From contig NC_014033.1 of the NCBI RefSeq assembly GCF_000025925.1, forward strand, positions 3,330,001 to 3,362,000: a stretch of 32,000 nt of DNA. The letters run 5' to 3'. Position 1 is the stretch's first letter; each line of letters begins with the position of its first letter. Positions 2,546-25,427 of the stretch are shown here, piece by piece. The notes beneath the pieces are model-generated. The model did not search any database, was not told the DNA's origin, and saw only the letters and a program-made list of their open reading frames with translations. This DNA is from Xylanibacter ruminicola 23 (GTDB lineage Bacteria > Bacteroidota > Bacteroidia > Bacteroidales > Bacteroidaceae). The position numbers and the translations under genes are program-made.

Positions 2546-3670
2546 ATGGTAAACAATCCTTTTATTCTGTATGGATATGAGTCGGAGGAGTATTTCTGTG
2601 ATCGTCAAGACGAGACGAAGCATCTGCTCCGATTAATAGAGAATGGAAATAATGTTGCATTAATAGCTCCACGTCGAATAGGTAAGACGGGGCTGATAGA
2701 GAATTTATACCATCTAAAGGAGGTTCAGGAGAATTATTATACGTTTCTGATTGATATCTATGCAACTAAGAATATGGAGGATATGGTTATGGCGATGGGT
2801 AGCGCAATGCTTGCATCATTACGGCCTAAAGGTGCTCAGATTATGCAGAAGTTTACAGGCTTCTTGTCTTCTTTACGTAGCGGTATCTCTTTTGATCCTG
2901 CTGGAAATCCGTCGTGGAATGTGGAGATTGGAGATATCAGGATGCCAAGAACAACTTTAGAGGAGATCTTTCACTATATTGAATCGGCTGATAAACCATG
3001 TATTGTTGCTATTGATGAATTTCAGTCGGTTGCAAATTATCCTGATGGTCATGCAGAGGCACTTCTACGAACACATATTCAACATTGTCGCAATGCAAAT
3101 TTTATCTTTGCCGGGTCGCAACGTACCATGATGGCCGAGATATTTAATAGTCCGGCACGTCCGTTTTACCAAAGTGCTTCGATGATGAATCTTGGCTGTA
3201 TTTCAATGGATAAGTATTGCCAGTTTGCTCAGGAGCATTTTTCGAAGGCAGGCAAATCGCTTCCTGCCGATGTGTTCCAGATGGTTTACGAGCGCTTTGA
3301 AGGTATAACCTGGTATGTACAGCGTGTGATGAACGAACTTTTTTCTTTAACGTCTACAGGATCTGCCTGTACGGTGGAGATGATAGATGTGGCTATAGAT
3401 AATATTCTGCGAGCTAACGAATTCAATTATCAATCATTGCTGTTTCAACTGCCACCAAAACAAAAGATGCTGTTAGTGGCTATCTGTAAAGCAGGTAAGG
3501 CCACTGCCTTAACGTCGGCCGATTTTGTTCGTCGCTGGCATCTTCCGTCAACAAGTAGTGTTCAGTCTGCTATAAAGGGGCTGCTCGAAAAGAGTTTTGT
3601 GACAACTTCGCTTGGTGTTTACGAGGTTTACGATAAATTCTTTGCCATGTGGCTCCTCCGTCAATCATAA
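2546..3670 (+). CDS. AAA+/Arch_ATPase-type ATP-binding protein (COG1672-like) with C-terminal winged-helix-like segment
   Basis: 374-aa ORF. Walker A-like APRRIGKTGL and Walker B-like CIVAIDEFQS. The C-terminus (LPPKQKMLLVAICKAGKATALTSADFVRRWHLPSTSSVQSAIKGLLEKSFV) looks like a wHTH. Overall layout is typical of archaeal-ATPase family proteins common in Bacteroidales. Confidence 0.8.
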   Translation: MVNNPFILYGYESEEYFCDRQDETKHLLRLIENGNNVALIAPRRIGKTGLIENLYHLKEVQENYYTFLIDIYATKNMEDMVMAMGSAMLASLRPKGAQIMQKFTGFLSSLRSGISFDPAGNPSWNVEIGDIRMPRTTLEEIFHYIESADKPCIVAIDEFQSVANYPDGHAEALLRTHIQHCRNANFIFAGSQRTMMAEIFNSPARPFYQSASMMNLGCISMDKYCQFAQEHFSKAGKSLPADVFQMVYERFEGITWYVQRVMNELFSLTSTGSACTVEMIDVAIDNILRANEFNYQSLLFQLPPKQKMLLVAICKAGKATALTSADFVRRWHLPSTSSVQSAIKGLLEKSFVTTSLGVYEVYDKFFAMWLLRQS

Positions 3671-3718: not shown

Positions 3719-5239
3719 TTATAAACTTTGTAGGTAGTCATCCCATTGGGTGGGGGAGCCTTTCTGGCCGAACGATTTCTCGTATAGGCGTTCTCGGGTT
3801 GAACTGATTGCTTGCTTGCTTTTATTGAGTAAGTTTGCAACCTTTACGGGAGCAATGTCGATTTTCCTTAACAGGCAAATTTGGCGTTCAGTAGCGCTGA
3901 TATCACATAGATTCTCCAACCTCTCTGTAAAACGTGGATAAACTGTATTGATGACCTGTTCTAATTCCTGCCAGTCTTTATCGGTAATGTTAGGAGCAAA
4001 GGTCATACTGTTATCTGCAAAGTTGTAGAACTTTTTACGAATATCACATTCTTGTATTTGTTTTTTTCTTTCTTCTGATAGGGCTTTCTCTTCCTGTGTT
4101 TGTTGCCATTTCTTTGCCTGTTCTAATATTTCAGATCTCAGACTTTTTGTTTCTTTGTGTTTGGTGTAATACAAATATACAGCAATAAAAATAAACGCAA
4201 GCGTCAGGATGACGAAACAAGCTACTGTAAGATAAAAGTATATGCGTTGATTGCTTTCACGTAGCTCTGCATTCTCTTGTTCCTGTCGCTGATAATTGTA
4301 TAGTGCATTTATCTTGGCAACGGTTGCTGTGTTTGTTGTTTCGTTGATAGAGTCGTTAAGATTCTTATATACTGTTAGATAATGCAATGCTTCTTTTGCT
4401 TGTCCTCGTTTGAGGGCAATTTCGGCCAAGCGCTCATTAGCTGAGCAGCGAGCATATATTGTACCTATTTTTAATAGTTGCTTAGAGTAATATTCGGCAG
4501 AGTCCACCATACCGATGGTCATATAAATATTTGCTGCAGTTGTTAGTACGCCACTGCTGTCAGGGCCATATACGCAGGTTAAAGCTTCGTTTATCTCTGC
4601 TTTTGCTTTTGGGTAATTCTGCAATTTGCAATATAAACCTGCAAGGTTGCTTTTGTTACCATAATACAAATAGTCTATATTTTTTGCTTTTGTCAACTGG
4701 ATTGATTCCTGTAATATCCTTAGGGCCTCATCATATCGTTCATGGTCACTTAGTTCCTTTCCCCAATCTCTCAGGCCATATATCATACCGAGCGTATCTT
4801 TTTGGCTTTTACAGAACTGGTAGGAGCGTTTGAATGCTGCGATGGCCTCTTCTGGTAAGTCTTGGTACGAAAATACATAACCTATCTGGCTATAGATTAC
4901 TCCTTCCAAATCTGGGGTGTCGCTATGTGGTAGGGCTGATACTGCCTTATTGTAATAATGTAGTGACTTTGTGAAATCTCGTCGCTCGTAGAAAACACGA
5001 CCTGCGTAATAACATGCCTCAGCTAATTTCAGTTTACTGCCATGATGTTCATAATAGTCAACTAGCGAAAGTGCTAAAGAGTCAGATTCTGCAATAGGTT
5101 CATCGGCTTTATCTGCCGTTTTAATGCTTTGTAGCTTTTGATACATATCTTTTTCAAGAGAAGAATCCTCCCCCTGACACGAAAATGTAATGACCAATAT
5201 GGTAACGAATATGATGCGTTTTAGCAAATCTAATCTCAT
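3719..5239 (-). CDS. Membrane-tethered regulator: lipoprotein-type signal peptide + extracytoplasmic TPR repeats + single TM helix + coiled coil + C-terminal LuxR/FixJ-like HTH
   Basis: 506-aa ORF. The N-terminus MRLDLLKRIIFVTILVITFSC has a lipobox-like FSC. Residues ~60-300 carry TPR-like repeats rich in A/Y/L (e.g. AEACYYAGRVFYERRDFTKSLHYYNKAV). The TM helix is IYFYLTVACFVILTLAFIFIAVYLYY (residues ~333-358), followed by a K-rich stretch. The C-terminus ISATERQICLLRKIDIAPVKVANLLNKSKQAISSTRERLYEKSF fits the LuxR-type HTH pattern. Confidence 0.8.
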   Translation of the reverse strand: MRLDLLKRIIFVTILVITFSCQGEDSSLEKDMYQKLQSIKTADKADEPIAESDSLALSLVDYYEHHGSKLKLAEACYYAGRVFYERRDFTKSLHYYNKAVSALPHSDTPDLEGVIYSQIGYVFSYQDLPEEAIAAFKRSYQFCKSQKDTLGMIYGLRDWGKELSDHERYDEALRILQESIQLTKAKNIDYLYYGNKSNLAGLYCKLQNYPKAKAEINEALTCVYGPDSSGVLTTAANIYMTIGMVDSAEYYSKQLLKIGTIYARCSANERLAEIALKRGQAKEALHYLTVYKNLNDSINETTNTATVAKINALYNYQRQEQENAELRESNQRIYFYLTVACFVILTLAFIFIAVYLYYTKHKETKSLRSEILEQAKKWQQTQEEKALSEERKKQIQECDIRKKFYNFADNSMTFAPNITDKDWQELEQVINTVYPRFTERLENLCDISATERQICLLRKIDIAPVKVANLLNKSKQAISSTRERLYEKSFGQKGSPTQWDDYLQSL

Positions 5240-5258
5240 AACAATCTTTTTTCGCTTG

Positions 5259-5266
5259 CAAAGGTA
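5259..5266 (-). promoter_or_regulatory. Putative -7 promoter box (TACCTTTG) for the TPR-HTH gene
   Basis: Reverse complement of caaaggta is TACCTTTG, 19 nt upstream of the ATG at 5239. Confidence 0.45.
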
Positions 5267-5313
5267 ATACTTTTATTTCAAAAATTCCCCATTTCATCGA
5301 AATTTTACGGTTT

Positions 5314-5352
5314 TGCGTACAGTACGCAGAAAATGCGTACTCATTTGCGTAC
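5314..5352. promoter_or_regulatory. Array of four TGCGTAC heptamers (one inverted) - candidate operator/activator site in the divergent promoter region
   Basis: TGCGTAC at 5314-5320, GTACGCA at 5322-5328 (together the palindrome TGCGTAC-A-GTACGCA), and TGCGTAC again at 5334-5340 and 5346-5352. The array lies between the two divergent -7 boxes (5259-5266 and 5384-5391). Confidence 0.45.
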
Positions 5353-5383
5353 TAAAAAGTTTGGTTATATGTCATGAGCGTAT

Positions 5384-5391
5384 TAATTTTG
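5384..5391 (+). promoter_or_regulatory. Putative -7 promoter box (TAATTTTG) for the 5417-10806 gene run
   Basis: Exact TAnnTTTG match 25 nt upstream of the ATG at 5417. Confidence 0.45.
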
Positions 5392-5416
5392 CAGCATTAA
5401 ATTTAAAATTTACTGT

Positions 5417-5779
5417 ATGAAGAAATTAATTCCAATTCTATTATTGGCTTTCATAAGTCAAATTTGTTATGCAGAGGACACGCCTAATGGCAATAATGCA
5501 GATGGATATGATAAGGGAGAAAAAGGTCATCCACATAAGGCTCCCATAAAGCCATCTGCCCCACTTATCTCTTATAATCAAGGAGTGTTGTCTGTCTCAA
5601 CCCATAATACATTGTATAATGCAGAGATAATAATTCGTGATATTAATGGTAATATCATATATGATGTTGTTGATACCATCTCAAATGGTTATGTCATACT
5701 CTTGCCAGAATTCGTATCTGCTGAGATGTATCGTTTTGAATTGGTTTATTCAGAGAATCAGATTGTTTTATATTTCTGA
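5417..5779 (+). CDS. Small secreted protein, possibly DUF3244-type beta-sandwich (family assignment from memory, unverified)
   Basis: 120-aa ORF with signal peptide MKKLIPILLLAFISQICYA|ED. A low-complexity linker is followed by a ~75-aa beta-rich C-terminal domain (ISYNQGVLSVSTHNTLYNAEIIIRDINGNIIYDVVDTISNGYVILLPEFVSAEMYRFELVYSENQIVLYF). Confidence 0.65.
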   Translation: MKKLIPILLLAFISQICYAEDTPNGNNADGYDKGEKGHPHKAPIKPSAPLISYNQGVLSVSTHNTLYNAEIIIRDINGNIIYDVVDTISNGYVILLPEFVSAEMYRFELVYSENQIVLYF

Positions 5780-5830
5780 AATAGAATATGGATCCATAGA
5801 GGAAACTCCACAAATTCTATAAATATTAAC

Positions 5831-5853
5831 AATTTTAAAACAAAAGTAAAATG
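5831..5853 (+). repeat. Leader repeat copy 1 (AATTTTAAAACAAAAGTAAAATG) ending in the start codon of mini-protein A
   Basis: Identical except for one extra A to 7340-7363 (AATTTTAAAACAAAAAGTAAAATG). Confidence 0.85.
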
Positions 5854-6075
5854 AAGAAGTTTTTATTGATGCTTGCCATCATGGGAAGCGTAGTTACAAC
5901 TGCTTCGGCTGAAAAGAAAGAGCAGCCCAAAGAAGAATATGTTTATACTTTTCGTGGGCATTGCGAAACTTTGTCGATAACAAAGAGTTTTGATCATGTA
6001 CTTACAGATGCCGAAAAAGCATACTGGAATGGTTATGTGGATGGATTGTGTAATCCTCTACTACATTATTGTTAA
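5851..6075 (+). CDS. Secreted Cys-rich mini-protein A (74 aa precursor, ~54 aa mature), unknown family
   Basis: Signal peptide MKKFLLMLAIMGSVVTTASA|EKKEQPK. The mature part has 3 Cys and ends in HYC-stop. It is a clear paralog of the next ORF. Confidence 0.65.
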   Translation: MKKFLLMLAIMGSVVTTASAEKKEQPKEEYVYTFRGHCETLSITKSFDHVLTDAEKAYWNGYVDGLCNPLLHYC

Positions 6076-6093
6076 ACAATATCTGTGATGGTT

Positions 6094-6309
6094 ATGAAAG
6101 CATTTCTATTATTTCTATTACTAATTCTAGGACTTAATTTTGCTTACGCAGAAAAAAAAGAAGATCCTAAGTCACATTGTTATTTATTTGTTAGCAAGTG
6201 TGATAGATGCTATACAAAGGTTTTTGATCATGAACTATCTGATGCGGAATATGCATATTATCAAGGGTTTTATGATGCGCAATGTGATAAAAACTGGCAT
6301 TACTGTTAA
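6094..6309 (+). CDS. Secreted Cys-rich mini-protein B (paralog of A; ~52 aa mature), unknown family
   Basis: The track ORF starts at GTG 6085. ATG 6094 gives MKAFLLFLLLILGLNFAYA|EKKEDPK. The mature part has 5 Cys and also ends in HYC-stop. Shared pattern with A: TK.FDH.L[ST]DAE.AY..G..D..C....HYC. Confidence 0.65.
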   Translation: MKAFLLFLLLILGLNFAYAEKKEDPKSHCYLFVSKCDRCYTKVFDHELSDAEYAYYQGFYDAQCDKNWHYC

Positions 6310-6333
6310 TTATTTGATTAATCGATTATGTAA

Positions 6334-6341
6334 TAATTTTG
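6334..6341 (+). promoter_or_regulatory. Possible internal -7 box (TAATTTTG) ahead of GLPGLI gene 1
   Basis: Exact TAnnTTTG match, but only 15 nt upstream of the ATG at 6357. It could be a chance match in AT-rich DNA. Confidence 0.25.
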
Positions 6342-6356
6342 TAATTCTATGTTTAT

Positions 6357-7193
6357 ATGAAAAAAAAAGTCATTGTATTATTGCTAGGACTCGCAATAAT
6401 GAATCTATGCTATTCAAAGAATTTTATGGATAAGATGATGTTTCGTTTCGTCTATGACGTACAGGCAAAGGCTTTCGAAAAGAGTACCCGGTTGAATTCT
6501 GATGAACATTGGTTGGATATTGGTGAAAATGGTGTTAGCAAGTACTATAGTAGATGGAAGAATGATTATTGGCATATAAATGATAGTTTAAAAGCAATTG
6601 GCGGTGATTTTAACAGCATACAGCGCGTTGTTCGTGAAAAAGGGATAGAGTCATCACAATTCAACTACTATATCTACAAAAACTATCCTAGTCAGCGACA
6701 TCAAACGGTGGATTACTATTCAATAGAATTATTCCAGTATCAAGAGCCCATGGGGCAGGACTGGGAACTGGCAGAAGGAGATACTACAATTTTGAACCAT
6801 CCCTGCCATAAGGCTGTTTGCAATTATCACGGTAGAACATGGACAGCCTATTATGCCACAGATATCCCCATCTCTGATGGTCCATGGAAGCTCTGTGGGT
6901 TGCCAGGTCTCATATTGAGAGCTTACGATCACGATGGTGCTTTCATTATTAATTGTATCGGCATCCACCAGGAAGTTGGAGGTGAGATAACCATGCGTGA
7001 TGCTAAGAAAAGGAAAATGAAGCCAGAACAAGCGCATAAATTGATAGAACTGATTGATAGCGATCCTGATGCATATATGGAATCGCAAGGTCACAAAAGC
7101 ACGACTTATGATGAGAAGGGCAGACCAATGAAGATGCCTCAGATGCCCAAGCGTGCCTATTACGAAAGTTATTCCTCTGGAGATAAGAAATGA
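6357..7193 (+). CDS. GLPGLI family protein (TIGR01200-type), paralog 1
   Basis: 278-aa ORF with N-terminal signal/lipobox-like MKKKVIVLLLGLAIMNLC. Contains the eponymous motif in DIPISDGPWKLCGLPGLILRAYD. Confidence 0.85.
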   Translation: MKKKVIVLLLGLAIMNLCYSKNFMDKMMFRFVYDVQAKAFEKSTRLNSDEHWLDIGENGVSKYYSRWKNDYWHINDSLKAIGGDFNSIQRVVREKGIESSQFNYYIYKNYPSQRHQTVDYYSIELFQYQEPMGQDWELAEGDTTILNHPCHKAVCNYHGRTWTAYYATDIPISDGPWKLCGLPGLILRAYDHDGAFIINCIGIHQEVGGEITMRDAKKRKMKPEQAHKLIELIDSDPDAYMESQGHKSTTYDEKGRPMKMPQMPKRAYYESYSSGDKK

Positions 7194-7241
7194 GATATAC
7201 GCTGTTGACATTGATGGTGTGGCTGACAGCTATGGTGGTCG
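7159..7241 (+). repeat. 83-bp junction repeat, copy 1 (3' end of a GLPGLI gene + first 52 nt of the TonB-receptor gene)
   Basis: 82/83 identical to 8211-8293 (single G/A difference at 7219 vs 8271), while the two GLPGLI gene bodies are strongly diverged. Confidence 0.9.
7190..7241 (+). pseudogene. 5' relic of the TonB-dependent receptor gene (signal-peptide fragment MRYTLLTLMVWLTAMVV)
   Basis: The ATGA overlap with the GLPGLI-1 stop is exactly as at 8242-8245. The first 17 codons equal the start of the 8242-10806 ORF. Homology then ends, and the frame stops after 29 codons (stop codon 7277-7279). Confidence 0.75.
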
Positions 7242-7324
7242 GATTACGGACACCTTATTTATTTCATCTTGTTTCATGAAACACATTGAACCAAGAAAAA
7301 TTTGGTTGTTTGTGTAGTTTTGCC

Positions 7325-7332
7325 TATCTTTG
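7325..7332 (+). promoter_or_regulatory. Putative -7 promoter box (TATCTTTG) for GLPGLI gene 2 / receptor
   Basis: Exact TAnnTTTG match 58 nt upstream of the ATG at 7391, followed by the conserved leader repeat. Confidence 0.5.
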
Positions 7333-7339
7333 CCCCAGG

Positions 7340-7363
7340 AATTTTAAAACAAAAAGTAAAATG
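7340..7363 (+). repeat. Leader repeat copy 2, ending in a dead start (ATG TGA TGA)
   Basis: AATTTTAAAACAAAAAGTAAAATG matches 5831-5853. Here the ATG (7361-7363) is immediately followed by TGA. Confidence 0.8.
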
Positions 7364-7390
7364 TGATGAATTATTGAAAACTGGATTATT

Positions 7391-8245
7391 ATGAAGCTGT
7401 TATTAATTGGATTAATTCTATTTTGCATCGGAAACAATGCTTTTGGTCAGAAAACAATTTCTGACCAAAAGGTATTGGATACGGTTTCTTATCGCTTTGT
7501 GTACGATGTCCAGGCAAAGGTTTTTGAGAATAGCAATCTAAGGAAATCTGATGAACATTGGTTGGATATTGGGAAAAAAGGTATTAGTTATTATTATAGT
7601 GCTTGGCAAATGAGAAATATCCAAATCCATGATAGCATACGCAATATTGGTGGCTCAATGAATGATGTCTTTCGAGTGAAGTACGAGCAAGGTGTTGAAC
7701 CGTCAAATTTCCTTTATTTCATATTCAAGAATTATCCACTGACAGGGCAGCAGACTGTAGATTATGCGTCGATGGATTTATTCCAATATCAGGAACCGAT
7801 GGATTTGAATTGGAATTTTGTAGAAGGGGATACTATTATTTTGAATCATCCTTGTCAAAAGGCAATCTGCAATTATCATGGTAAAACATGGATTGCATTT
7901 TATGCCACAGATATCCCTATTTCTGATGGTCCTTGGAAATTATCAGGGTTGCCCGGGCTTATTCTCAGGGCTTACGACCTTTCCGACTCGTTCTTGTTTA
8001 ACTGTGTAGGCATCTATCAGAATGTAGGAGGAATTATTGCAATGATGCGTTCTAATAGAAAGATAACTACTCCTCAAAAAGTACATGAGACGACAAGAGA
8101 AATAGAAAAGGATCCCAATGCATATATGAAAGCAAAAGGCCAAAATGTCACAACGCTCGATGAAAAGGGGCGCCCTATCAATTTGGGTAAGATTCTGTCG
8201 AATATGGCTCATTACGAAAGTTATTCCTCTGGAGATAAGAAATGA
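7391..8245 (+). CDS. GLPGLI family protein, paralog 2
   Basis: 284-aa ORF with a signal peptide ending in NNAFG|QK (N-terminus MKLLLIGLILFCIGNNAFG) and the motif DIPISDGPWKLSGLPGLILRAYD. By eye it is ~55-60 percent identical to paralog 1. Its stop overlaps the next start (ATGA at 8242-8245). Confidence 0.85.
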   Translation: MKLLLIGLILFCIGNNAFGQKTISDQKVLDTVSYRFVYDVQAKVFENSNLRKSDEHWLDIGKKGISYYYSAWQMRNIQIHDSIRNIGGSMNDVFRVKYEQGVEPSNFLYFIFKNYPLTGQQTVDYASMDLFQYQEPMDLNWNFVEGDTIILNHPCQKAICNYHGKTWIAFYATDIPISDGPWKLSGLPGLILRAYDLSDSFLFNCVGIYQNVGGIIAMMRSNRKITTPQKVHETTREIEKDPNAYMKAKGQNVTTLDEKGRPINLGKILSNMAHYESYSSGDKK

Positions 8246-8293
8246 GATATACGCTGTTGACATTGATGGTATGGCTGACAGCTATGGTGGTCG
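8211..8293 (+). repeat. 83-bp junction repeat, copy 2 (functional GLPGLI/receptor junction)
   Basis: See 7159-7241. Confidence 0.9.
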
Positions 8294-10806
8294 AGGCCCA
8301 AACATCTTTTTCGGGACGTGTTGTTGCTGAAGGTTCGAAAAAGGGGTTGGGCTGGGCCAGTGTAGTGGCCGAGGATGGTAACCATAAGCCCGTGGCATTT
8401 GCTAGAACTAAGGAGGATGGCACCTTTGAACTGAAGGTGCAGGCAGGCAAGGAACCGGCATGGCTATCGTTCTCGTTGCTCAGCTATGCAAAAAAAACGA
8501 TTGCTGTAGCTGATTATCGCAATGGTCAGACCGTAAAAATGCGCGAAGAGGCACTAATGCTGAAGGAGGTAAAAGCCACCTCGAAGCGATTGGTTCGACG
8601 TAGCGATACGTTGGTATATAGCGTGGCAGGATTCCGCCATAAGCAAGACAGATCCATAGCCGACGTCATTGCTAAAATGCCTGGGCTTGAAGTAAAGCAG
8701 GATGGCTCTATCCAGTATCAGGGCAAGCCCATCAACGAGTTTTATATTGGAGGCATGAACCTGATGGGCAACAACTACTCGCTGGCCAGCGAGAATATCA
8801 ATGCCAACAAGGTGAAGAATGTAGAGGTTCTTACCAACCATCAGAAGGTGAAGGCCCTGCGTGGTGTGCAATTCTCCGACCAGGCTGCACTGAATCTTGT
8901 ATTAGAAGAAGATGCCAAGAATACCTGGTTGGGATTGGTGGAGACAGGAGTGGGAACCACATTGCAACAGAACGAGACCGACCGTCTGCTGCGCGACGGG
9001 CGCCTGATGGCCATGATGTTTGGAGGTAAGATGCAGAGCCTGTCGATGTATAAATGGAATAATACAGGTAAAAACATCAAACGAGAGATACGCGACCTGC
9101 AAAACACCATCGCCGACATCAGTAGTGCCAAAAGCATGATTAATAGTGTTGGACTGAGTGCCCCTGGCCTGATGCAGGAACGCTATACGATGAACGACTC
9201 CCGACTGCTGGCTACCAACTGGCTGCGTAAGGCTGGTAAGGATGCCACCATCAGGTTCCAGCTCAATGGCTTTATCGACAATACCGAGGGTAATCGCTAC
9301 TCAGAAACCACCTACTCGGATGTGATGGGTGGTGCCATCATCACAGAGGAAGCCAATGGCGAGAATCGGCAGAGCCAATGGAAAGGTGAATTGAAATATG
9401 AGCGCAATGGAGAAAAACTGTTTGTTACAAATGTATTGAGCGGCTATATGGATTTCGACAAGAGCTGGGCTACGACATACACAAACGGTCAGGTTCTGCG
9501 ACAAGAGGCTGCACCCAAAGAACGCTGGGTGGGCGACCATCTGGAAATCGTGAAGGCCTTGGGTAATGACCGTGTGCTGCGACTGAATGCCAGTGGCTTT
9601 ATCGCCTATCTGCCTGGTATGCTGCTACTGGCCGACAGTACTAGCCAGAATGTCGATCAGCATGCCACCCAATTGCGTGTAGGGGCCTCATTCCGCCATA
9701 AACTATTTGGTAAACTGTATGTTTCATATAAAACAGGTGTTGACTACGATGACGAGCGTTTCGCACTTAGTTGCCATCAACAGCCTACACAGCGCAACAG
9801 CTATCAACAGTTCAGCTGGTATCTGCAGCCATCATTCAATATCAAACGTAATGATCTGGAGCTTACGGCATCGCTGCCATTCAGATTAATCAATCGCCAC
9901 TTTGGTAATGAAAACAACACGCAGGGCATACTAACGCCAACAATAAACATTCATTATCAGCTGCTTAGCGAACTGGCTGTTATTGCCAGCTATAACTACA
10001 ACTGGCAGCCCGCCTCGTTAGAGGATATGACGGCAGTTCCTGTTTACAGCAGCTATCGAAGCTATAGTACAGGTATCGGCAGTCTCTATGCCCAAAACAG
10101 TCAGAATGGCAATCTGAAGTTTGAATACAGTAACCCTGTGATAGGTTTGTTTGGCCATATCCAGGCCACCTTGTTATATCAGGACAATCAGCCTCTTTAC
10201 AACAGCCAGTTGGACGGCATTTTCTACCATAGTAGCCCGTCGGGACAGTTCTACGACAATACCACATGGATGCTTTCCGGCCGTCTCAGCAAATCACTCG
10301 GCACTATGAAATTTATTACAGCCATCGACGGTAATCTGTCGAGCCGACGCTCCACCACCATGATGAGCGGGCTACTACTACCTTACCGTCTCGACAGCTA
10401 TCGTTGCGGCATCAGTTTCTCTTTGCGCCCGGCACAGACGCTGTCTTTCGAGGAAGAGAGTCATTATCAGTACAGCTGTCAGAAATTCAACAGCATTCAG
10501 TTGTCGGATAGCCGTGCCTTGCGTTCGTTTACCCATACTTTGAAGAGCTACTACATGCCAGGTAACTGGCAGATAGAATGGACCAACGAGATGTATCATA
10601 GTAACGACCATTCCGTATCGTTCACCTATTTCTCCGACCTGCAGGTGTCATACCGCACCAAAAAGCATGAGTTTGGTGTAAAGGTAGGTAATATCTTCGG
10701 CAACAAGGATTACGAACGCAGATACATCTACACCAATTACACCAGTTACACGATGAACCGCTTGCGCCCAAGAGAAATCCTATTGAAGGCTAGTTTTGAT
10801 CTGTAA
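8242..10806 (+). CDS. TonB-dependent receptor-like outer-membrane protein (CarboxypepD_reg domain + plug + large beta-barrel)
   Basis: 854-aa ORF with signal peptide MRYTLLTLMVWLTAMVVEA|Q. CarboxypepD_reg-like segment: FSGRVVAEGSKKGLGWASVVAEDGNHKPVAFARTKEDGTFELKV. TonB-box-like LKEVKATSK. Plug-like segment: DRSIADVIAKMPGLEVKQDGSIQYQGKPINEFYIGGMNL. The remainder is long, Y/S/N-rich and barrel-like. No SusD-like partner is present. Confidence 0.85.
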   Translation: MRYTLLTLMVWLTAMVVEAQTSFSGRVVAEGSKKGLGWASVVAEDGNHKPVAFARTKEDGTFELKVQAGKEPAWLSFSLLSYAKKTIAVADYRNGQTVKMREEALMLKEVKATSKRLVRRSDTLVYSVAGFRHKQDRSIADVIAKMPGLEVKQDGSIQYQGKPINEFYIGGMNLMGNNYSLASENINANKVKNVEVLTNHQKVKALRGVQFSDQAALNLVLEEDAKNTWLGLVETGVGTTLQQNETDRLLRDGRLMAMMFGGKMQSLSMYKWNNTGKNIKREIRDLQNTIADISSAKSMINSVGLSAPGLMQERYTMNDSRLLATNWLRKAGKDATIRFQLNGFIDNTEGNRYSETTYSDVMGGAIITEEANGENRQSQWKGELKYERNGEKLFVTNVLSGYMDFDKSWATTYTNGQVLRQEAAPKERWVGDHLEIVKALGNDRVLRLNASGFIAYLPGMLLLADSTSQNVDQHATQLRVGASFRHKLFGKLYVSYKTGVDYDDERFALSCHQQPTQRNSYQQFSWYLQPSFNIKRNDLELTASLPFRLINRHFGNENNTQGILTPTINIHYQLLSELAVIASYNYNWQPASLEDMTAVPVYSSYRSYSTGIGSLYAQNSQNGNLKFEYSNPVIGLFGHIQATLLYQDNQPLYNSQLDGIFYHSSPSGQFYDNTTWMLSGRLSKSLGTMKFITAIDGNLSSRRSTTMMSGLLLPYRLDSYRCGISFSLRPAQTLSFEEESHYQYSCQKFNSIQLSDSRALRSFTHTLKSYYMPGNWQIEWTNEMYHSNDHSVSFTYFSDLQVSYRTKKHEFGVKVGNIFGNKDYERRYIYTNYTSYTMNRLRPREILLKASFDL

Positions 10807-10909
10807 GTATTAGTTGTCATCTATATTCTAATTTATCTGATAGAGACTATTTGAGTGGTGCCTCATATACCCCATTATCACCAGTTGTAGTGATAAAAAG
10901 ATGTTAAAT

Positions 10910-10955
10910 ACTAAAAATTTAGTTGATAAAATTTGGAACTACTAAATATTTAGTA
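10910..10955. promoter_or_regulatory. Two palindromic operators (ACTAAA-N2-TTTAGT) upstream of the blaI-like gene
   Basis: ACTAAAAATTTAGT at 10910-10923 and TACTAAATATTTAGTA (perfect 16-nt palindrome) at 10940-10955. Centres are 31 bp apart. The second abuts the -7 box at 10956-10963. Confidence 0.5.
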
Positions 10956-10963
10956 TATATTTG
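10956..10963 (+). promoter_or_regulatory. Putative -7 promoter box (TATATTTG) for blaI/blaR1/tlpA-like genes
   Basis: Exact TAnnTTTG match. It lies 8 nt before ATG 10972 and 26 nt before ATG 10990, which favours 10990 as the start. Confidence 0.5.
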
Positions 10964-10989
10964 CCGGCGGAATGATAAACCTAAGCATT

Positions 10990-11376
10990 ATGAAGGAGAA
11001 AAAGAAGCAACTAACCAAGGCCGAGACGCAGGTGATGAACATCCTGTGGAGTTTGCCAGAACAGCAGGGCTTTATTCAGGACATCATCGATCGCTATCCT
11101 GAACCCAAACCTGCCTACACTACTATCCTGACGTTTATGAAGATTCTTACAGACAAGGGATTTGTAAAGCCTGAAAGGGTAGGCAAGGCCAATCGTTTTT
11201 CGCCGTTGGTAAGCAAGGACGATTACACCTACTCGTTTATCAGCGATGTAAAGGATACTTTTTTTGATGGCTCATTCACATCGCTTGTCAGCTTCTTTGC
11301 CAAAAAGGAGCAATATACCGACGAGGAGTTGGCAGAACTGAAGGAATTGATGACAAAAATCGAGTCGAAACGATGA
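10990..11376 (+). CDS. BlaI/MecI/CopY-family transcriptional repressor
   Basis: The track ORF is 10972-11376; I prefer the ATG at 10990 (MKEKKKQLTKAETQVMNILW...). The winged-helix pattern LTKAETQVMNILW...IQDIIDRYPEPKPAYTTILTFMKILTDKGFV is typical of the family. Its stop overlaps the next start (ATGA at 11373-11376). Confidence 0.8.
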   Translation: MKEKKKQLTKAETQVMNILWSLPEQQGFIQDIIDRYPEPKPAYTTILTFMKILTDKGFVKPERVGKANRFSPLVSKDDYTYSFISDVKDTFFDGSFTSLVSFFAKKEQYTDEELAELKELMTKIESKR

Positions 11377-12614
11377 TAACGGCATTTCTGTTATATATAG
11401 GTAAGGTGGCGATACTGTTGGCAGTGTTCTATCTGTTTTATCGCCTATTGATGGAACGTGAGACTTTTCATCGCTTTAATCGTGCCATCCTGCTTTTGTC
11501 GTTCTTGATAGCCTTTATCCTTCCGCTGTGCGAAATCACCCTGCACAAAACGGTTGTGGCTGCATCTACGTCTGCATCCGGGTCTAATGTTGCAGCTGGT
11601 GTTGTATCGGATATTCCCTCTGTAACTTACGGTAATCCCCTTCTATGGCTATTCGTTATCTATCTTGTAGGCGTAGTATTAAAACTGCTCCATACCGCCA
11701 TCAGCATCTATCGTTTGAACAAGTTGATTAACCAATGCGAGCAGCACCCGCAAGCAGATGGTACCACCATTGCCGTTTGCGCTCAGAATATTGCTCCGTT
11801 CAGTTGGTGGAACACCATTGTGTTTTCGCGTCGCGACTATCAATTACAGGATTCGGCCCTCTTGGTTCATGAGCGGGCACATATCAATAGCTATCACTCC
11901 TTCGATCTGTTGCTGATGGAGTTGGCGATTGCCCTGCAGTGGTTTAACCCTGCCATCTGGCTCACAGGTAGAGAGTTACGTGCCGTTCATGAGTACGAGG
12001 CCGATGCCAGTGTGCTTTCGGGTGGTGTAGATGCACACCACTATCTGAACCTGCTGATGGATAGGGCCAATGCCAAGTTGGAGTGTAAGTTGGCTAATGC
12101 CATCAGTCAGCAAACGCTGAAGAACCGTTTTCAGATGATGGCGCGTCATCGCTCCAAGCCTTCACGATTGCTCAAGGTGCTGTATCTGCTCCCCGTTGTA
12201 GCCATCACCTTAGCCCTGAATGCTCAGACGATTATTCACTATCAGGCACCTGAACCCGCTCCCAGCCATCCTGTTGCTGATACCATTCAGCCCCCTGCGT
12301 CACAGAAGGTGGCACCAGACCCTGAGGTTAAGCCATATAAACAGCAAAGCACTCAAAAGACGGAACCTCAGCCAGAAACCGCATTGCTGACGATTTCAGG
12401 AACGGTAGTTGACGAAGAAGGTAATCCCTTGTTAGGTACAGCTGTAAAGGAACATGACGGTGCAACAGGTACGATTACTGATTTTGATGGTAAATTCTCG
12501 CTCAAAGTACCCAAAGGCACTGTGGTAGATTTTCTGAATATAGGCGTGGCCACAGTCTCCATACAGGTAAAGAGCGATATGACTGACCAGAAGATAATTA
12601 TGAAACAAGAATAA
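11373..12614 (+). CDS. BlaR1-like M56 family membrane metallopeptidase/signal transducer fused to a C-terminal CarboxypepD_reg-like domain
   Basis: 413-aa ORF with several N-terminal TM helices. HExxH in LLVHERAHINSYHSFD and a downstream EYEAD. A Pro-rich linker (APEPAPSHPVADTIQPPASQKVAPDPEVKP) precedes ISGTVVDEEGNPLLGTAVKEHDGATGTITDFDGKFSLKVPKGT. Confidence 0.85.
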   Translation: MITAFLLYIGKVAILLAVFYLFYRLLMERETFHRFNRAILLLSFLIAFILPLCEITLHKTVVAASTSASGSNVAAGVVSDIPSVTYGNPLLWLFVIYLVGVVLKLLHTAISIYRLNKLINQCEQHPQADGTTIAVCAQNIAPFSWWNTIVFSRRDYQLQDSALLVHERAHINSYHSFDLLLMELAIALQWFNPAIWLTGRELRAVHEYEADASVLSGGVDAHHYLNLLMDRANAKLECKLANAISQQTLKNRFQMMARHRSKPSRLLKVLYLLPVVAITLALNAQTIIHYQAPEPAPSHPVADTIQPPASQKVAPDPEVKPYKQQSTQKTEPQPETALLTISGTVVDEEGNPLLGTAVKEHDGATGTITDFDGKFSLKVPKGTVVDFLNIGVATVSIQVKSDMTDQKIIMKQE

Positions 12615-12631
12615 CTTAACCAATAAAAGTA

Positions 12632-13726
12632 ATGAGTATGAAAAAAGTTTTTGTGATGATGGCAGTGTTGTTGGCATCAGTAACCGCATCTGCTAATGAC
12701 AACTTTAAGTTGACAGGTAAAATTGATGGTGCAAGCAATGATACGCTCTGCATCGAGTATACTATTTTGCAGCCTCAGAAACAGCACATGGTGCATAAGG
12801 TGGCTGTAAAGGCTGGTGAGTTTTTGTTCCACGCCAATCTGAAAGAGGCTTATTCGGCTAAAATGTATTTAAAGACGAATCCCAAAGAGAGTCTTTATTT
12901 CTATTTGGTTCCTGATGAGGAGGCTGTCTTTAGTGGCAGTCTTAATTCGGTAGACGAGCATTGGAGTGGTAGTACATTCTATCAGCAGTACGAACGAATA
13001 ACTGAACTCCAACGTCCTTTTAATATTGAGTTTGTGGCTGCTCGAAATGATCCTGATAGCATAAGGGGGGAGAAAAACCGTGATATCAATAGGCGCGCAC
13101 ATTCTGTATATATGAAATACATAGAGGAACATCCCGACGAGGATGCCACGGCAACTTTGATTGTTTATGTAGGTTACGAGCAGGTGTTGCCTGCTATGGC
13201 CAAGTTGACTCCGGAAGTTCGCAATGGCAGAATGAAAAGCGATTTGGATAGCTTGGAGAGAATGTTTAAGCAAGTGCTGAAAGAGGCGGCTGCACGCAAA
13301 GCCGTTAAGAACGATACTGTTACAATAGGCACTCAAGTACCAGAACTTGGGTTGAAAGATTTGCAGGGAAATGTGTTGGAATTGAAATCGCTTCGTGGTA
13401 AATATGTAGTGCTCGATTTCTGGGGCTCGTGGTGTACCTGGTGTATCAAAGGGTTCCCCAAACTAAAGGAGTACTACGCCAAATATAAGGATCGCCTTGA
13501 GATTGTGGGCATCGACTGTAACGATACTGCCGAAAAGTGGGCTGCTGCTGTTAAGAAACACAATCTGCCTTGGCTGCAGGTAAGAAGCGAGGATGGCATT
13601 ACAGAGGATAGATTCAGAATAAAGGGCTATCCTTATAAGGTGCTGATCTCGCCCGAAGGCATTGTGCTCAATGCCTACCTAGGCGAAACCGCCGATTTCT
13701 ACCAGTATTTAGATACCGCCCTTTAA
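12632..13726 (+). CDS. TlpA-family thiol-disulfide oxidoreductase (N-terminal DUF4369-like domain + thioredoxin fold)
   Basis: 364-aa ORF with signal peptide MSMKKVFVMMAVLLASVTASA and the thioredoxin CxxC in VVLDFWGSWCTWCIKGFPKL. Confidence 0.85.
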   Translation: MSMKKVFVMMAVLLASVTASANDNFKLTGKIDGASNDTLCIEYTILQPQKQHMVHKVAVKAGEFLFHANLKEAYSAKMYLKTNPKESLYFYLVPDEEAVFSGSLNSVDEHWSGSTFYQQYERITELQRPFNIEFVAARNDPDSIRGEKNRDINRRAHSVYMKYIEEHPDEDATATLIVYVGYEQVLPAMAKLTPEVRNGRMKSDLDSLERMFKQVLKEAAARKAVKNDTVTIGTQVPELGLKDLQGNVLELKSLRGKYVVLDFWGSWCTWCIKGFPKLKEYYAKYKDRLEIVGIDCNDTAEKWAAAVKKHNLPWLQVRSEDGITEDRFRIKGYPYKVLISPEGIVLNAYLGETADFYQYLDTAL

Positions 13727-14382: not shown

Positions 14383-15645
14383 TCAGATGCTGGCAAAGAT
14401 GCTACTCTTTGTTTCTAACTCTGAAAGACTAAGTTTTTTAGGGTTCCTTTTAATTTCGGCAGCAATACCAGTGTGCTCAAATTCATTGAGGGCAATCATA
14501 TCTATCTCATTCTCACCTTTACGATTCCACCAATTCCCCACTATCGTATATTGCCCCGATTCCATAGCTTGTTGTTGAAAGAACTGTTCAAGTGTACGCC
14601 CTGTAAACTGTTCATAACCTTTCCCCATATTCTGTCGCAACAAGGAAAGTTGCTGGCGTTCCACAAGTGCCTGATATGGCCACACAAAGCGGAACCAGAA
14701 ACGTAGGAACTGGTCGGAAATCTCGTAAGCACTGGTTTTGCTGTTAGGTTTGGCCAGTAGGGGTTTTAGACGCGAGATGATGTTATAGTTGTTTTCAAGA
14801 TTCTGGATGAAAGTACCCATATCCTTTTGCATTGCGCCGTCTATATCCGAACGCCTGGTCATACCTCCCGCTATTAGCTGGAGAATAGAAAAGTATGTGC
14901 TACTCTCATCGCCAAACTCCTGAATCATCAGATCGCGACCCTCTGAGAGAAAATAAGAATCCTGCCTGCATACAAAGTTTAGCATTTTCTCCTTTGTATA
15001 ACATCCTGCATCCATCAAAAGCTCTACGTATTTTGCCACTCCACCAGTAATCATATAGAGGCAAAGCAAGTCCTCATTGTTATAATGCGGGTGATGGTCG
15101 CCGAATATCTGCTTCAGTACATTAATAGAGAAAGGTAACAGTGTGAATTTTGAGGTGGGGCGTCCATAGAGCGGTTCGTTTCTATCTTCGAAGATACGTT
15201 TCATCAACGAACGGATACTACCCATCGTTATCAGGTTAATATGTGAGTCACGATGATACCTGTCCCAAATGTCTTGCATCTCACTAAAGATGGCTGGATT
15301 TACTTTATAGAAGTTCTGAAACTCATCAAAAACAATAGAAAAATGGCGATGTACCGATTCTCTCATAATAACCTCGAACACATCACGGAAGTGCGACAAT
15401 CGACCATATACCTGTATACCTACCTGTTCCTGGAGTGTTTGCTGAAACTTATGGCAAAGCATGGCTTCGCTATCTTTCGCCACAAAAAGATAAGCAAACT
15501 GGCACCCCTCCAAGGCTTTTATCACAAGCGACGTTTTACCAACTCGGCGTCTACCCATCAGTACTGTAAACACAGCATGCTGTTCGGCCTGCTTCTCATT
15601 CTGCTTCAGAATCTCCATCTCTGCTTTGCGATCATAAAACTTCAT
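14383..15645 (-). CDS. Arch_ATPase-type ATP-binding protein with C-terminal DUF234 / PD-(D/E)xK nuclease-like module
   Basis: 420-aa ORF. Walker A GRRRVGKTS and Walker B-like SIVFDEFQN. The C-terminal WWNRKGENEIDMIALNEFEHTGIAAEIKRN supplies a D...E.K signature. Confidence 0.85.
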   Translation of the reverse strand: MKFYDRKAEMEILKQNEKQAEQHAVFTVLMGRRRVGKTSLVIKALEGCQFAYLFVAKDSEAMLCHKFQQTLQEQVGIQVYGRLSHFRDVFEVIMRESVHRHFSIVFDEFQNFYKVNPAIFSEMQDIWDRYHRDSHINLITMGSIRSLMKRIFEDRNEPLYGRPTSKFTLLPFSINVLKQIFGDHHPHYNNEDLLCLYMITGGVAKYVELLMDAGCYTKEKMLNFVCRQDSYFLSEGRDLMIQEFGDESSTYFSILQLIAGGMTRRSDIDGAMQKDMGTFIQNLENNYNIISRLKPLLAKPNSKTSAYEISDQFLRFWFRFVWPYQALVERQQLSLLRQNMGKGYEQFTGRTLEQFFQQQAMESGQYTIVGNWWNRKGENEIDMIALNEFEHTGIAAEIKRNPKKLSLSELETKSSIFASI

Positions 15646-18778: not shown

Positions 18779-18871
18779 GGAAAAGTGCGAAAAAAGTGTG
18801 ATTTTTTAGTGGTTGAAACAAAATAAAAAGTAAATGTAACATGAGGATAAGCCACTTTCGAAAAAATACAC

Positions 18872-18879
18872 TAACTTTG
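18872..18879 (+). promoter_or_regulatory. Orphan -7-like box (TAACTTTG) inside the GH10/GH95 spacer
   Basis: Exact TAnnTTTG match with no ORF downstream before the terminator at 18947-18991. Confidence 0.3.
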
Positions 18880-18946
18880 CACCCAGATAAAATAAAGAAT
18901 CGGTTAAAATTGTTTTAGTTATATTAGTAGTTAGTAGTTTTTCCTT

Positions 18947-18991
18947 CCCTGGGACTAAAGAAAGGCGTTTCTTGTCCCAGGGTTATTTTTT
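18947..18991 (+). terminator. Strong Rho-independent terminator
   Basis: CCCTGGGAC-T-AAAGAAA-GGCG-TTTCTT-GTCCCAGGG, i.e. a 9-bp outer stem (18947-18955 with 18974-18982) plus a 6-bp inner stem (AAGAAA 18958-18963 with TTTCTT 18968-18973), followed by TTATTTTTT. Confidence 0.7.
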
Positions 18992-19009
18992 AAATTCATA
19001 AATTATTTG

Positions 19010-19017
19010 TATCTTTG
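19010..19017 (+). promoter_or_regulatory. Putative -7 promoter box (TATCTTTG) for the GH95 gene
   Basis: Exact TAnnTTTG match 29 nt upstream of the ATG at 19047. Confidence 0.5.
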
Positions 19018-19046
19018 CAGCGAAATTTAAAACCAATAGTATATAT

Positions 19047-21512: not shown

Positions 21513-21549
21513 ACATTAAAGATTAAAGATTAAACATTAAAGATGAAAT
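21501..21549. repeat. Heptanucleotide tandem repeat (ATTAAAS)x6 + degenerate 7th unit, spanning the GH95 stop and GH3 start
   Basis: ATTAAAC ATTAAAC ATTAAAG ATTAAAG ATTAAAC ATTAAAG ATGAAAT. The GH95 stop TAA is 21510-21512 and the GH3 ATG is 21543-21545. Confidence 0.9.
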
Positions 21550-25410: not shown

Positions 25411-25427
25411 ATCGTTCCTTTTTTTGT

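Follow-up and report, generated by a model that had tools for sequence, protein, structure and literature searches.

Bacteroidetocins are the class IIf bacteriocins of Bacteroidetes (PMC6671954, PMC8546649). Their loci consist of four genes, and neither TonB nor tetratricopeptide proteins are mentioned in the text of the respective paper (PMC6671954). Here we analyse a locus of Xylanibacter ruminicola 23 that encodes a different pair of small exported proteins. The window, i.e. the whole stretch of 32,000 nucleotides under analysis (contig NC_014033.1, positions 3,330,001 to 3,362,000), contains two tandem genes, ORF1 and ORF2, for mini-proteins A and B, respectively, which are followed by two genes of the GLPGLI family and a gene for a large outer-membrane protein (OMP) (Table 1). 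We class the pair with the small, exported, Cys-stabilised Bacteroidales peptides that have dedicated envelope genes.

Like bacteroidetocins, the window proteins are small (about 40-55 aa when mature), Cys-containing peptides exported by Bacteroidales and encoded in accessory, strain-variable loci; furthermore, two related GLPGLI loci, L102 and L087, carry a peptide with a double-glycine (GG) leader together with bacteroidetocin-type export genes (see below). The window proteins differ from bacteroidetocins in having Sec leaders and no GG motif of the C39 double-glycine type, in being acidic and hydrophilic instead of cationic or hydrophobic, and in lacking any sequence similarity to them; in addition, Pfam scans of the main ORFs of the window locus detected no C39-ABC or VKOR gene. 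With two-peptide (class IIb) bacteriocins and pherotype peptides (ComC, AgrD), the pair shares the arrangement of two adjacent paralogous precursors, the cassette-like exchange of alleles and a leader conserved at the amino-acid level in front of a divergent mature part. Unlike in those systems, the host is Gram-negative, the leader is a Sec signal, and the window pair comes without GxxxG helices, a histidine kinase/response regulator pair or a dedicated peptidase. The HasA/HasR and HmuY/HmuR systems likewise have a gene for a small secreted protein upstream of a TonB-dependent-type OMP, but show no similarity to the window proteins in sequence or fold, and no conserved ligand-binding residues are shared; the window mini-proteins are much smaller and hypervariable, and their locus has an extra LolA-like component. 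Finally, in Myxococcus xanthus, the TonB-dependent-type OMP Oar is likewise tied to a secreted protein, PopC (PMC6434023); unlike the mini-proteins, PopC is a protease of large size whose synthesis involves no signal peptide. In the literature on GLPGLI (TIGR01200/PF09697), DUF3244 and DUF6377, these families appear only in gene lists, and no function, structure or partner of GLPGLI has been published.

A rare family of Prevotellaceae mini-proteins

The original prediction described ORF1 and ORF2 as tandem genes 9-18 nt apart with Sec signal peptides, paralogous along the mature chain and endowed with 3 and 5 Cys, respectively, and all these points hold. The coordinates are correct, with a gap that varies with the candidate start of ORF2 (GTG 6085, ATG 6088 or ATG 6094). 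As read from sequence features, both proteins carry putative Sec-type leaders, in which a K-rich n-region and a hydrophobic core precede an AxA site (TTASA/EKKE in ORF1 and FAYA/EKKE in ORF2, the slash marking the presumed cleavage position). BLASTP aligns the two over 57 residues, covering the whole mature length, with 49% identity and an E-value of 9e-16, so that their tandem paralogy is far beyond chance; three Cys align, the last residue included. The isoelectric point (pI) is 5.4, and the grand average of hydropathy is -0.7 for ORF1 and -1.1 for ORF2.

ORF1 and ORF2 are genuine genes under purifying selection. The ratio of nonsynonymous to synonymous substitution rates (dN/dS) between ORF1 and its ortholog in L001 is 0.13 overall and 0.10 in the mature part, far from the value near 1 that had been named as a refutation of the original prediction. 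In the 20-residue leader, the window and L011 differ by six synonymous and no nonsynonymous codon changes, and the mature parts of the same two proteins are only about 20% identical; the leader is therefore constrained at the protein level. ORF1 is carried by more than 100 contigs and ORF2 by 74, two records of genome size among them, and nearly all population variants retain the 3-Cys and 5-Cys patterns, respectively, the exception for ORF2 being the singleton P0162, with a Cys-to-Tyr change. The possibility that these are chance or decaying frames without function, which might be suggested by their short length, their location in a low-GC region (34-37%) and the adjacent decayed third copy, can be dismissed with near certainty because of this conservation pattern: dN/dS of 0.1-0.13, orthologs in more than 100 contigs, a leader conserved at the amino-acid level only, and strict synteny. 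The expectation that ORFs this short had been missed by annotation was not borne out, given that both are present in NCBI nr and UniRef as hypothetical proteins.

The family is rare. Among 5.8 billion proteins, a word-indexed search found 11 relatives and a profile search 20, and an exhaustive hidden Markov model search of 1.84 billion cluster representatives with a profile of the mature region produced 17 matches, all unnamed and of 51-101 aa, save one spurious repeat protein. The latter, P0029, a large protein (1149 aa) with Flg_new-type repeats, was rejected. The hosts that are named for homologs are Xylanibacter ruminicola, Prevotella sp. and Prevotellaceae. Neither ORF1 nor ORF2 has a match in Pfam (even at an E-value of 10), NCBIfam or PADLOC scans, and the mature-region alignment, used as a profile against PDB sequences, retrieved nothing either. 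The family has no name, and it is new in the sense of being unnamed and unmatched; within it, ORF1 and ORF2 represent an ancient A/B paralog pair.

The family signature consists of a signal peptide, a hydrophobic beta-strand, a conserved Cys in a hairpin, a second strand, an (F)DH-E-L-S/T helix cap and a helix that ends in the second conserved Cys, within a total length of 51-101 aa. ORF1 and ORF2 share this signature with the other members (P0001-P0031) according to the alignments (A3, A5), the profile searches and the AlphaFold2 model. The HYC terminus, originally taken to be invariant, is found only in the two copies of the window and in their nearest orthologs; elsewhere in the family, the chain terminates in GSC, IYC, YTI, FYL, AGLL or RNH. 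From an alignment of 13 mature sequences, AlphaFold2 predicts a beta-beta-alpha structure (strands 10-15 and 22-27, helix 33-47) with a predicted local distance difference test (pLDDT) score of 81.6; the mature fold is thus modelled as a beta-hairpin and a single helix. A Foldseek search of the PDB with this model gave nothing below an E-value of 1.9; the model is a generic strand-strand-helix mini-fold.

A conserved module of mini-protein, GLPGLI and OMP genes

The gene order around the mini-proteins is conserved: a regulator with tetratricopeptide repeats (TPR), a transmembrane (TM) helix and a helix-turn-helix (HTH) region, a DUF3244 protein, the mini-protein(s), one to seven GLPGLI proteins and a TonB-receptor-like OMP. 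Every homolog that was examined lies directly upstream of at least one GLPGLI gene, followed by an OMP gene for 853-887 aa. The TPR-TM-HTH regulator and the DUF3244 protein usually, but not always, head these modules; no regulator adjoins the modules of L001-L006 and L024.

The two GLPGLI proteins of the window score 160 and 159.7 bits against a curated cutoff of 50 and contain the GLPGLI motif. The AlphaFold2 model of GLPGLI-278 (pLDDT 92.2) is matched by Foldseek to the N-terminal 'bowl' domain of PNGase F-II (4r4z, E 2.5e-9) and to LolA/LolB (E 1e-4 to 1e-2). Most GLPGLI copies have a type-I signal peptide and accordingly are probably soluble in the periplasm; on the basis of the model, GLPGLI is probably a LolA-like open beta-barrel. 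The OMP that closes the module yields subthreshold or weak Pfam matches to CarbopepD_reg_2 (E 2.4e-6, below the gathering score) and Plug (E 9e-3). Across 28 orthologs, a CarboxypepD_reg-like domain, which corresponds to the N-terminal extension (NTE) of SusC-type transporters, is matched in 26 and Plug in 13 (best E 1.1e-4); the profile of the same orthologs retrieves NTE domains from the PDB (6ytc, E 2e-7; 9hfj, E 3.4e-6), and a TonB-box-like LKEVxVxS can be read by eye in the consensus of alignment A9. The barrel has no family match. Judging from these sequence features, the 854-aa OMP appears to be TonB-dependent-transporter-like.

A wider survey covered 80 metagenomic loci that were fetched with a GLPGLI profile and annotated; a scan of contigs with the GLPGLI alignment, the derived patterns being strict, contributed 3 loci only. 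Among the distant GLPGLI-OMP loci (30-45% identity), there are many whose slot is filled by a protein with a signal peptide and 40-60 mature residues that has the layout of hydrophobic strand, C/D-G turn, strand, L-T/S-x-x-E helix cap, helix and Cys (alignment A7). A small ORF with a signal peptide precedes 29 of 87 distinct first-in-run GLPGLI genes as opposed to 12 of 310 other genes of the same loci (odds ratio 12, Fisher p 1e-12), and in three loci (L040, L041, L058) each of two GLPGLI genes has a mini-protein of its own. All slot mini-proteins are acidic and hydrophilic (pI 4-5.6, with a range of 4.05-7.0 given for the 25 slot peptides that were examined). When the window family (A5) was compared to the distant slot proteins of Bacteroidaceae types (A8) with hhalign, the match was weak (E 0.006, probability 6%), with the Cys aligned in register; the likeness may reflect convergence, or the length of the sequences may be insufficient for scoring. 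P0108, a GLPGLI relative at a greater distance, comes from a Bacteroidaceae bacterium.

The slot peptides of L102 and L087 are the only ones with GG leaders. The L087 peptide is located behind an HlyD fragment. In L102, the slot is occupied by a 2-Cys peptide, and the cluster also encodes a C39-like/VKOR oxidoreductase and a C39-ABC transporter; this locus combines the GLPGLI module with an export set of the bacteroidetocin type. The whole cluster (L102 3094-14295) comprises a TPR regulator, a DUF3244 protein (E 1.3e-13), the GG-leader peptide, two GLPGLI proteins, the C39-like/VKOR protein, a TonB-type OMP and the C39-ABC transporter. In five human-gut loci (L076, L086, L099, L100, L110), the slot before the first GLPGLI gene contains instead an 80-aa, apparently multi-pass membrane protein (MIIFKLLITIALLAAGVYFDIRKRRN…).

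The head of the module is shared more broadly. The regulator of the window, which has a SusR/DUF6377-like architecture, matches TPR_12 (E 3e-14), TPR_2 (E 9e-14) and, weakly, DUF6377 (E 2.6e-4) in Pfam and, partially, the BT3442 family in NCBIfam, and a homologous regulator heads most of the related loci. Regulator and mini-protein do not co-vary: regulators that are 73-98% identical accompany unrelated mini-proteins or other cargo. Thus, the window and L027 regulators are 73% identical and their mini-proteins unrelated, and the P0011 mini-protein is found behind a 610-aa regulator on the same strand in L011 and behind a 538-aa regulator on the opposite strand in L012. The other cargo behind such regulators comprises an RHS toxin, a C10 protease and a Gly/Ala-rich peptide. 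In L020, a second TPR regulator, 98% identical to that of the mini-protein locus, is found at 9643-12769 with a DUF3244-like protein (140 aa), a 69-aa membrane protein, an 82-aa Gly/Ala-rich bacteriocin-like peptide and a 183-aa protein, so that the TPR/DUF3244 head seems to drive variable secreted cargo in general. A TPR and DUF3244-like head also precedes an RHS/YD-repeat toxin gene (L001 11626-14282) and a C10 peptidase with an I69 inhibitor domain (L012 374-3864). Equivalents of the DUF3244-like gene of the window are found in the same position in nearly all related loci, with matches to DUF3244 in L102 (see above) and, as a precomputed match, in L030.

No TAnnTTTG motif is found directly upstream of ORF1, so ORF1 and ORF2 probably are co-transcribed with the DUF3244 gene, which has such a motif (Table 1); further motifs of this type precede the two GLPGLI genes (6334-6341 and 7315-7332). 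A scan for sigma-70 promoters and terminators gave background levels with a model that is ill-suited to Bacteroidetes, and an Rfam scan of the window had no match.

Recombination history of the window locus

That the module had been duplicated, as first claimed, or rearranged is substantiated by a third-gene remnant and by cassette-type recombination. The third copy, described originally as a decayed leader and start at 7340-7363, is real, but it is more than a leader, namely an internally deleted gene with a P0006-type 3' end. Positions 7343-7363 are an 86% copy of the ribosome-binding-site/ATG region at 5833-5853 (repeat D6), and 7364-7394 are the last 31 nt of a different, P0006-type family member, as shown by alignment to L007. 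The end of the remnant overlaps the start of the next GLPGLI gene by 4 nt, exactly like the intact gene of L007.

Compared with L007, the window shows 90.8% identity over 4076-5943 and 98.7% over 7362-11302. The two stretches are separated by a cassette with the mature part of ORF1, ORF2, GLPGLI-278 and one copy of an 83-nt repeat; this repeat identifies the right part of the inserted DNA and gives rise to a truncated OMP-start ORF at 7190-7279. The left junction falls within or just after the conserved leader, and at the right junction the resident P0006-type mini-protein gene was destroyed. The window locus is thus a recombinant in which the mini-proteins moved together with their GLPGLI protein. 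In addition, in L020, a metagenome-assembled genome of X. ruminicola, and in L031, genes A and B have recombined into a single chimera across a shared segment of 44 nt (D4). The positions of the junctions in the leader and flanks and the D4 chimera imply that the leader and the flanking genes serve as homology for cassette exchange. The GC content is 34-39% at 4001-8000, compared with about 50% elsewhere in the window; this dip spans the regulator, the DUF3244 gene, the mini-protein genes and the GLPGLI genes, and the OMP gene lies outside it.

The signal-peptide-coding part of GLPGLI-284 contains a perfect 14-bp inverted repeat at 7440-7471 (CTTTTGGTCAGAAA-ACAA-TTTCTGACCAAAAG). Its counterpart in L007 (2053-2084) has identical arms and the reverse-complemented loop TTGT; the 4-nt loop has therefore been inverted between the strains, with a change of two codons.

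Cysteines and the dimer question

The odd Cys counts of the two mature chains had been interpreted as leaving at least one thiol per chain unpaired within the molecule, their sum (3+5=8) as an indication of a heterodimer, and a TlpA-type oxidoreductase encoded downstream as a possible link. The comparative data do not sustain these ideas in the form given, and odd counts are not a conserved property. Only two Cys, one in the hairpin and one at the end of the helix, are invariant in the family, and the number of Cys in mature chains ranges from 2 to 5. The A/B tandem is kept in four divergent loci with sums of 3+5 (window), 4+4 (L001), 3+4 (L111) and 4+3 (L113), so that '3+5=8' is not a rule. 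The TlpA-like gene lies beyond an unrelated BlaI/BlaR1 pair and is absent beside the module in other loci; for want of conserved synteny, it was rejected as a module partner. Across the wider set of slot mini-proteins, the two conserved Cys are either both there or both absent, a pattern that fits a structural disulfide better than a metal site, and the fold is probably stapled by this pair. A metal site, in particular a beta-beta-alpha zinc finger of the C2H2 type, which takes four conserved metal ligands (two each in hairpin and helix), was rejected, given that invariance is limited to the two Cys and does not extend to the His of FDH, and that some slot occupants are free of Cys.

Covalent dimers are not implied by the Cys counts. 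It is possible, but in our judgement rather doubtful, that A and B form a disulfide-linked heterodimer (or homodimers) via unpaired C-terminal Cys and that such a dimer is the active species. Consistent with this proposal are the retention of A/B tandems in all four loci and of the 3-Cys and 5-Cys patterns in the window lineage, as well as the fate of individual residues: two orthologs with 4 Cys, P0004 and P0005, contain an additional TFC as a plausible intramolecular partner of the terminal Cys, and ORF1 has lost this partner through a Cys-to-Arg change (TFC to TFR), while ORF2 has gained a Cys (CDRC). Moreover, the terminal Cys recurs in several lineages (L042, L096), and in an unrelated tandem pair (L070, L092), the sole Cys of each protein is the C-terminal residue (PYYC; HREC/HKEC). 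However, within the family the C-terminal Cys is confined to one clade, the totals in L111 and L113 are not complementary, the B-type proteins of these two loci lack the terminal Cys, the chimeric single gene of L020 and L031 encodes 3 Cys with no partner gene, and some slot occupants (L044, L053, L069) have no Cys at all beyond the family in which just two are universal. In strict anaerobes, the oxidation of exported thiols may be inefficient, and conditions in the rumen are strongly reducing, which also weighs against a dimer. So does the need of bacteroidetocin loci for a thiol oxidoreductase of their own (PMC6671954).

Role of the mini-proteins

In our leading explanation, to which we give an even chance, the mini-proteins act as a variable ligand or cargo for the envelope module of GLPGLI and TonB-type OMP. 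Under the proposed mechanism, they would be exported by Sec with cleavage of the leader, bound to the LolA-like GLPGLI protein(s) once in the periplasm, and passed through, or received from, the TonB-gated OMP. The module would serve interactions at the strain level, as a bacteriocin-like or signal-like peptide system with variable, diffusible mini-proteins. The binding to GLPGLI, the passage through the OMP with its direction, and the biological role are steps that we infer. In favour of a ligand or cargo are the synteny in every locus type examined, the analogous slot proteins of distant GLPGLI loci, including those with one mini-protein per GLPGLI protein (L040, L041, L058), the joint movement of the mini-proteins with GLPGLI-278 in one cassette, the LolA-like model of GLPGLI, and the SusC-type NTE and plug-like region of the OMP.

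Several observations weigh on the other side. About half of the sampled distant GLPGLI-OMP loci have no detectable mini-protein, so that the module can work without one; the copy numbers of GLPGLI and mini-protein genes do not track each other (1:2, 1:1, 4:1, 7:1); homology of the window family to the distant slot occupants is not demonstrated by the weak hhalign match; and the physical link of the mini-proteins to GLPGLI or the OMP is one that we infer. All the mini-proteins are acidic and hydrophilic, unlike the cationic, hydrophobic class II bacteriocins, which argues against a classical membrane-active bacteriocin. TonB-dependent transporters normally import, and this, together with the SusR-like regulator, favours uptake. 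The opposite direction, export of the peptides, is favoured by the GG-leader/ABC variants and the Oar/PopC precedent: C39-ABC, C39/VKOR oxidoreductase and HlyD, which are found near the slot peptides of L102 and L087, are hallmarks of exported peptides, as in bacteroidetocin loci (PMC6671954), and the TonB-dependent transporter Oar is needed for the secretion of PopC (PMC6434023).

Other roles were considered. The mini-protein could be an autoinducing peptide that, after its release, re-enters via the TonB-dependent OMP, binds to GLPGLI and is detected by the regulator through its periplasmic TPR domain, which would activate the locus and possibly also toxin loci. Peptide sensing is a classic function of TPR domains, the topology of the regulator is of the SusR/DUF6377 type used in loci centred on TonB-dependent transporters, the conserved leader with a hypervariable mature part resembles pherotype systems, and the 98%-identical regulator of L020 also heads a locus with a bacteriocin-like peptide; DUF6377 regulators occur in polysaccharide utilisation loci (bioRxiv 10.64898/2025.12.01.691665). 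Nevertheless, this scenario is unlikely, considering that the co-variation of cognate peptide and TPR receptor of the RRNPP kind was not found (as shown by the window/L027 and P0011 cases above), that the modules of L001-L006 and L024 have no adjacent regulator, and that the same TPR/DUF3244 head precedes RHS-toxin and C10-protease cargo. A purely periplasmic accessory, i.e. a chaperone-like or inhibitory partner of GLPGLI or the OMP that, for instance, fills the LolA-like cavity or gates the plug, or else an immunity-type factor, would account for soluble, acidic proteins whose leader is of the Sec type only, with no recognisable signal for export across the outer membrane, and for the tight coupling to GLPGLI (the 4-nt overlap in L007 and the co-transfer in one cassette). 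The GG-leader and C39-ABC variants (L102, L087) point to export from the cell, however, and it would be unusual for the mature part of a housekeeping accessory to diversify so rapidly; such a role also appears improbable.

Even less inclined are we to view the mini-proteins as secreted capture proteins ('-phores') that bind a scarce nutrient or metal outside the cell and are recognised by the TonB-dependent OMP like hemophores. The logic of the operon, with a small secreted protein alongside a TonB-dependent receptor as well as a periplasmic binder, fits this function, as do the acidity of the proteins, the conserved Cys/His (FDH) motif of the window family and the recurrence of CxxC around the conserved hairpin Cys (P0004, ORF2, L024). 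Yet the mature sequences are hypervariable, with the two Cys as the only invariant potential ligand residues; these Cys are paired or wholly absent across the slot occupants, in better agreement with a disulfide staple than with a metal site; and the PDB profile and Foldseek searches detected no similarity to known hemophore or metallophore proteins.

Genomic context

Table 1. Mini-protein locus and adjacent features of the window (window positions).
Feature	Position	Strand	Description
One-component regulator	3719..5239	-	Divergently transcribed; lipoprotein-like leader, TPR repeats, one TM helix, C-terminal HTH-like tail
Promoter motif TAnnTTTG	5384..5391	+	Bacteroidetes-type -7; 26 nt upstream of DUF3244 gene
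DUF3244-like small secreted beta-sandwich protein	5417..5779	+	120 aa; Pfam DUF3244 E 1.2e-4, below cutoff
Mini-protein A (ORF1)	5851..6075	+	74 aa; putative Sec-type leader MKKFLLMLAIMGSVVTTASA; acidic 54-aa mature chain, 3 Cys, HYC end
Mini-protein B (ORF2, P0012)	6088..6309	+	71-74 aa by start codon; putative leader MKAFLLFLLLILGLNFAYA; 52-aa mature chain, 5 Cys, HYC end
GLPGLI-278	6357..7193	+	278 aa; TIGR01200 E 7.5e-47; part of inserted cassette
83-nt direct repeat (family D3)	7159..7241	+	99% identical to 8211-8293; GLPGLI 3' end and first ~50 nt of OMP gene
Third mini-protein gene remnant	7343..7394	+	Ribosome-binding-site/ATG copy fused to last 31 nt of P0006-type gene (CDELLKTGLL-stop)
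GLPGLI-284	7391..8245	+	284 aa; TIGR01200 E 9.2e-47; resident L007-type copy (98.7% nt identity to L007 from 7362 onward)
Outer-membrane protein	8242..10806	+	854 aa; signal peptide, SusC-type NTE, plug-like region, large divergent barrel; last module gene in all loci
TlpA-like gene	12632-13726		Behind BlaI/BlaR1 pair

Downstream of the module, a BlaI-like repressor is followed by a BlaR1/M56 peptidase (10972-12614) with a C-terminal SusC/RagA-type NTE domain (TIGR04056, E 2e-17), the same type of domain as that found at the start of the 854-aa OMP. The locus is flanked by AAA proteins of the ATPase_2 type (2546-3670 and 14383-15645), one with a weak match to MarR_2 and the other with a DUF234 domain; the protein at 2546-3670 weakly matches PDC-S27, a candidate defence family of PADLOC. 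In related mini-protein loci, the neighbours include AAA_15/AAA_21, RloB, MmeI-type restriction-modification and VapE-like genes, and this environment suggests an accessory-island setting. Further downstream (16598-29432), and in keeping with a Xylanibacter/Prevotella host from rumen or gut, the window contains a xylan/plant-glycan utilisation set, namely GH10 with an esterase, GH95, GH3, a solute-binding protein and a hybrid two-component regulator.

Implications

The searchable literature contains no published association of such mini-proteins with GLPGLI and TonB-type OMP genes, and both this association and the LolA-like model of GLPGLI are new observations. The GLPGLI family, which is large and specific to Bacteroidota, can reach dozens of copies in a single genome and is also represented in pathogens such as Porphyromonas, Tannerella and Riemerella. 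The diversifying slot mini-protein, the LolA-like model and the GG-leader variant of the slot peptide turn this anonymous family into a testable system and provide a first handle on what the uncharacterised GLPGLI/OMP gene set works on. Tentatively, and as a possibility that we would not rate as probable, the locus could represent an undescribed Bacteroidales system in which a TonB-energised OMP and a LolA-like carrier move a small folded protein across the outer membrane, outward or in self-uptake, the hypervariable mini-proteins being strain-specific signals or narrow-spectrum toxins. If the transport-system reading is true, it would give the large GLPGLI family its first function. Should the mini-proteins be toxins or signals that are exported, the module could, following Oar/PopC, be a second case of proteins moving through a TonB-dependent transporter, and it would constitute a new route of peptide competition or communication among Prevotella and Bacteroides of the rumen and gut.

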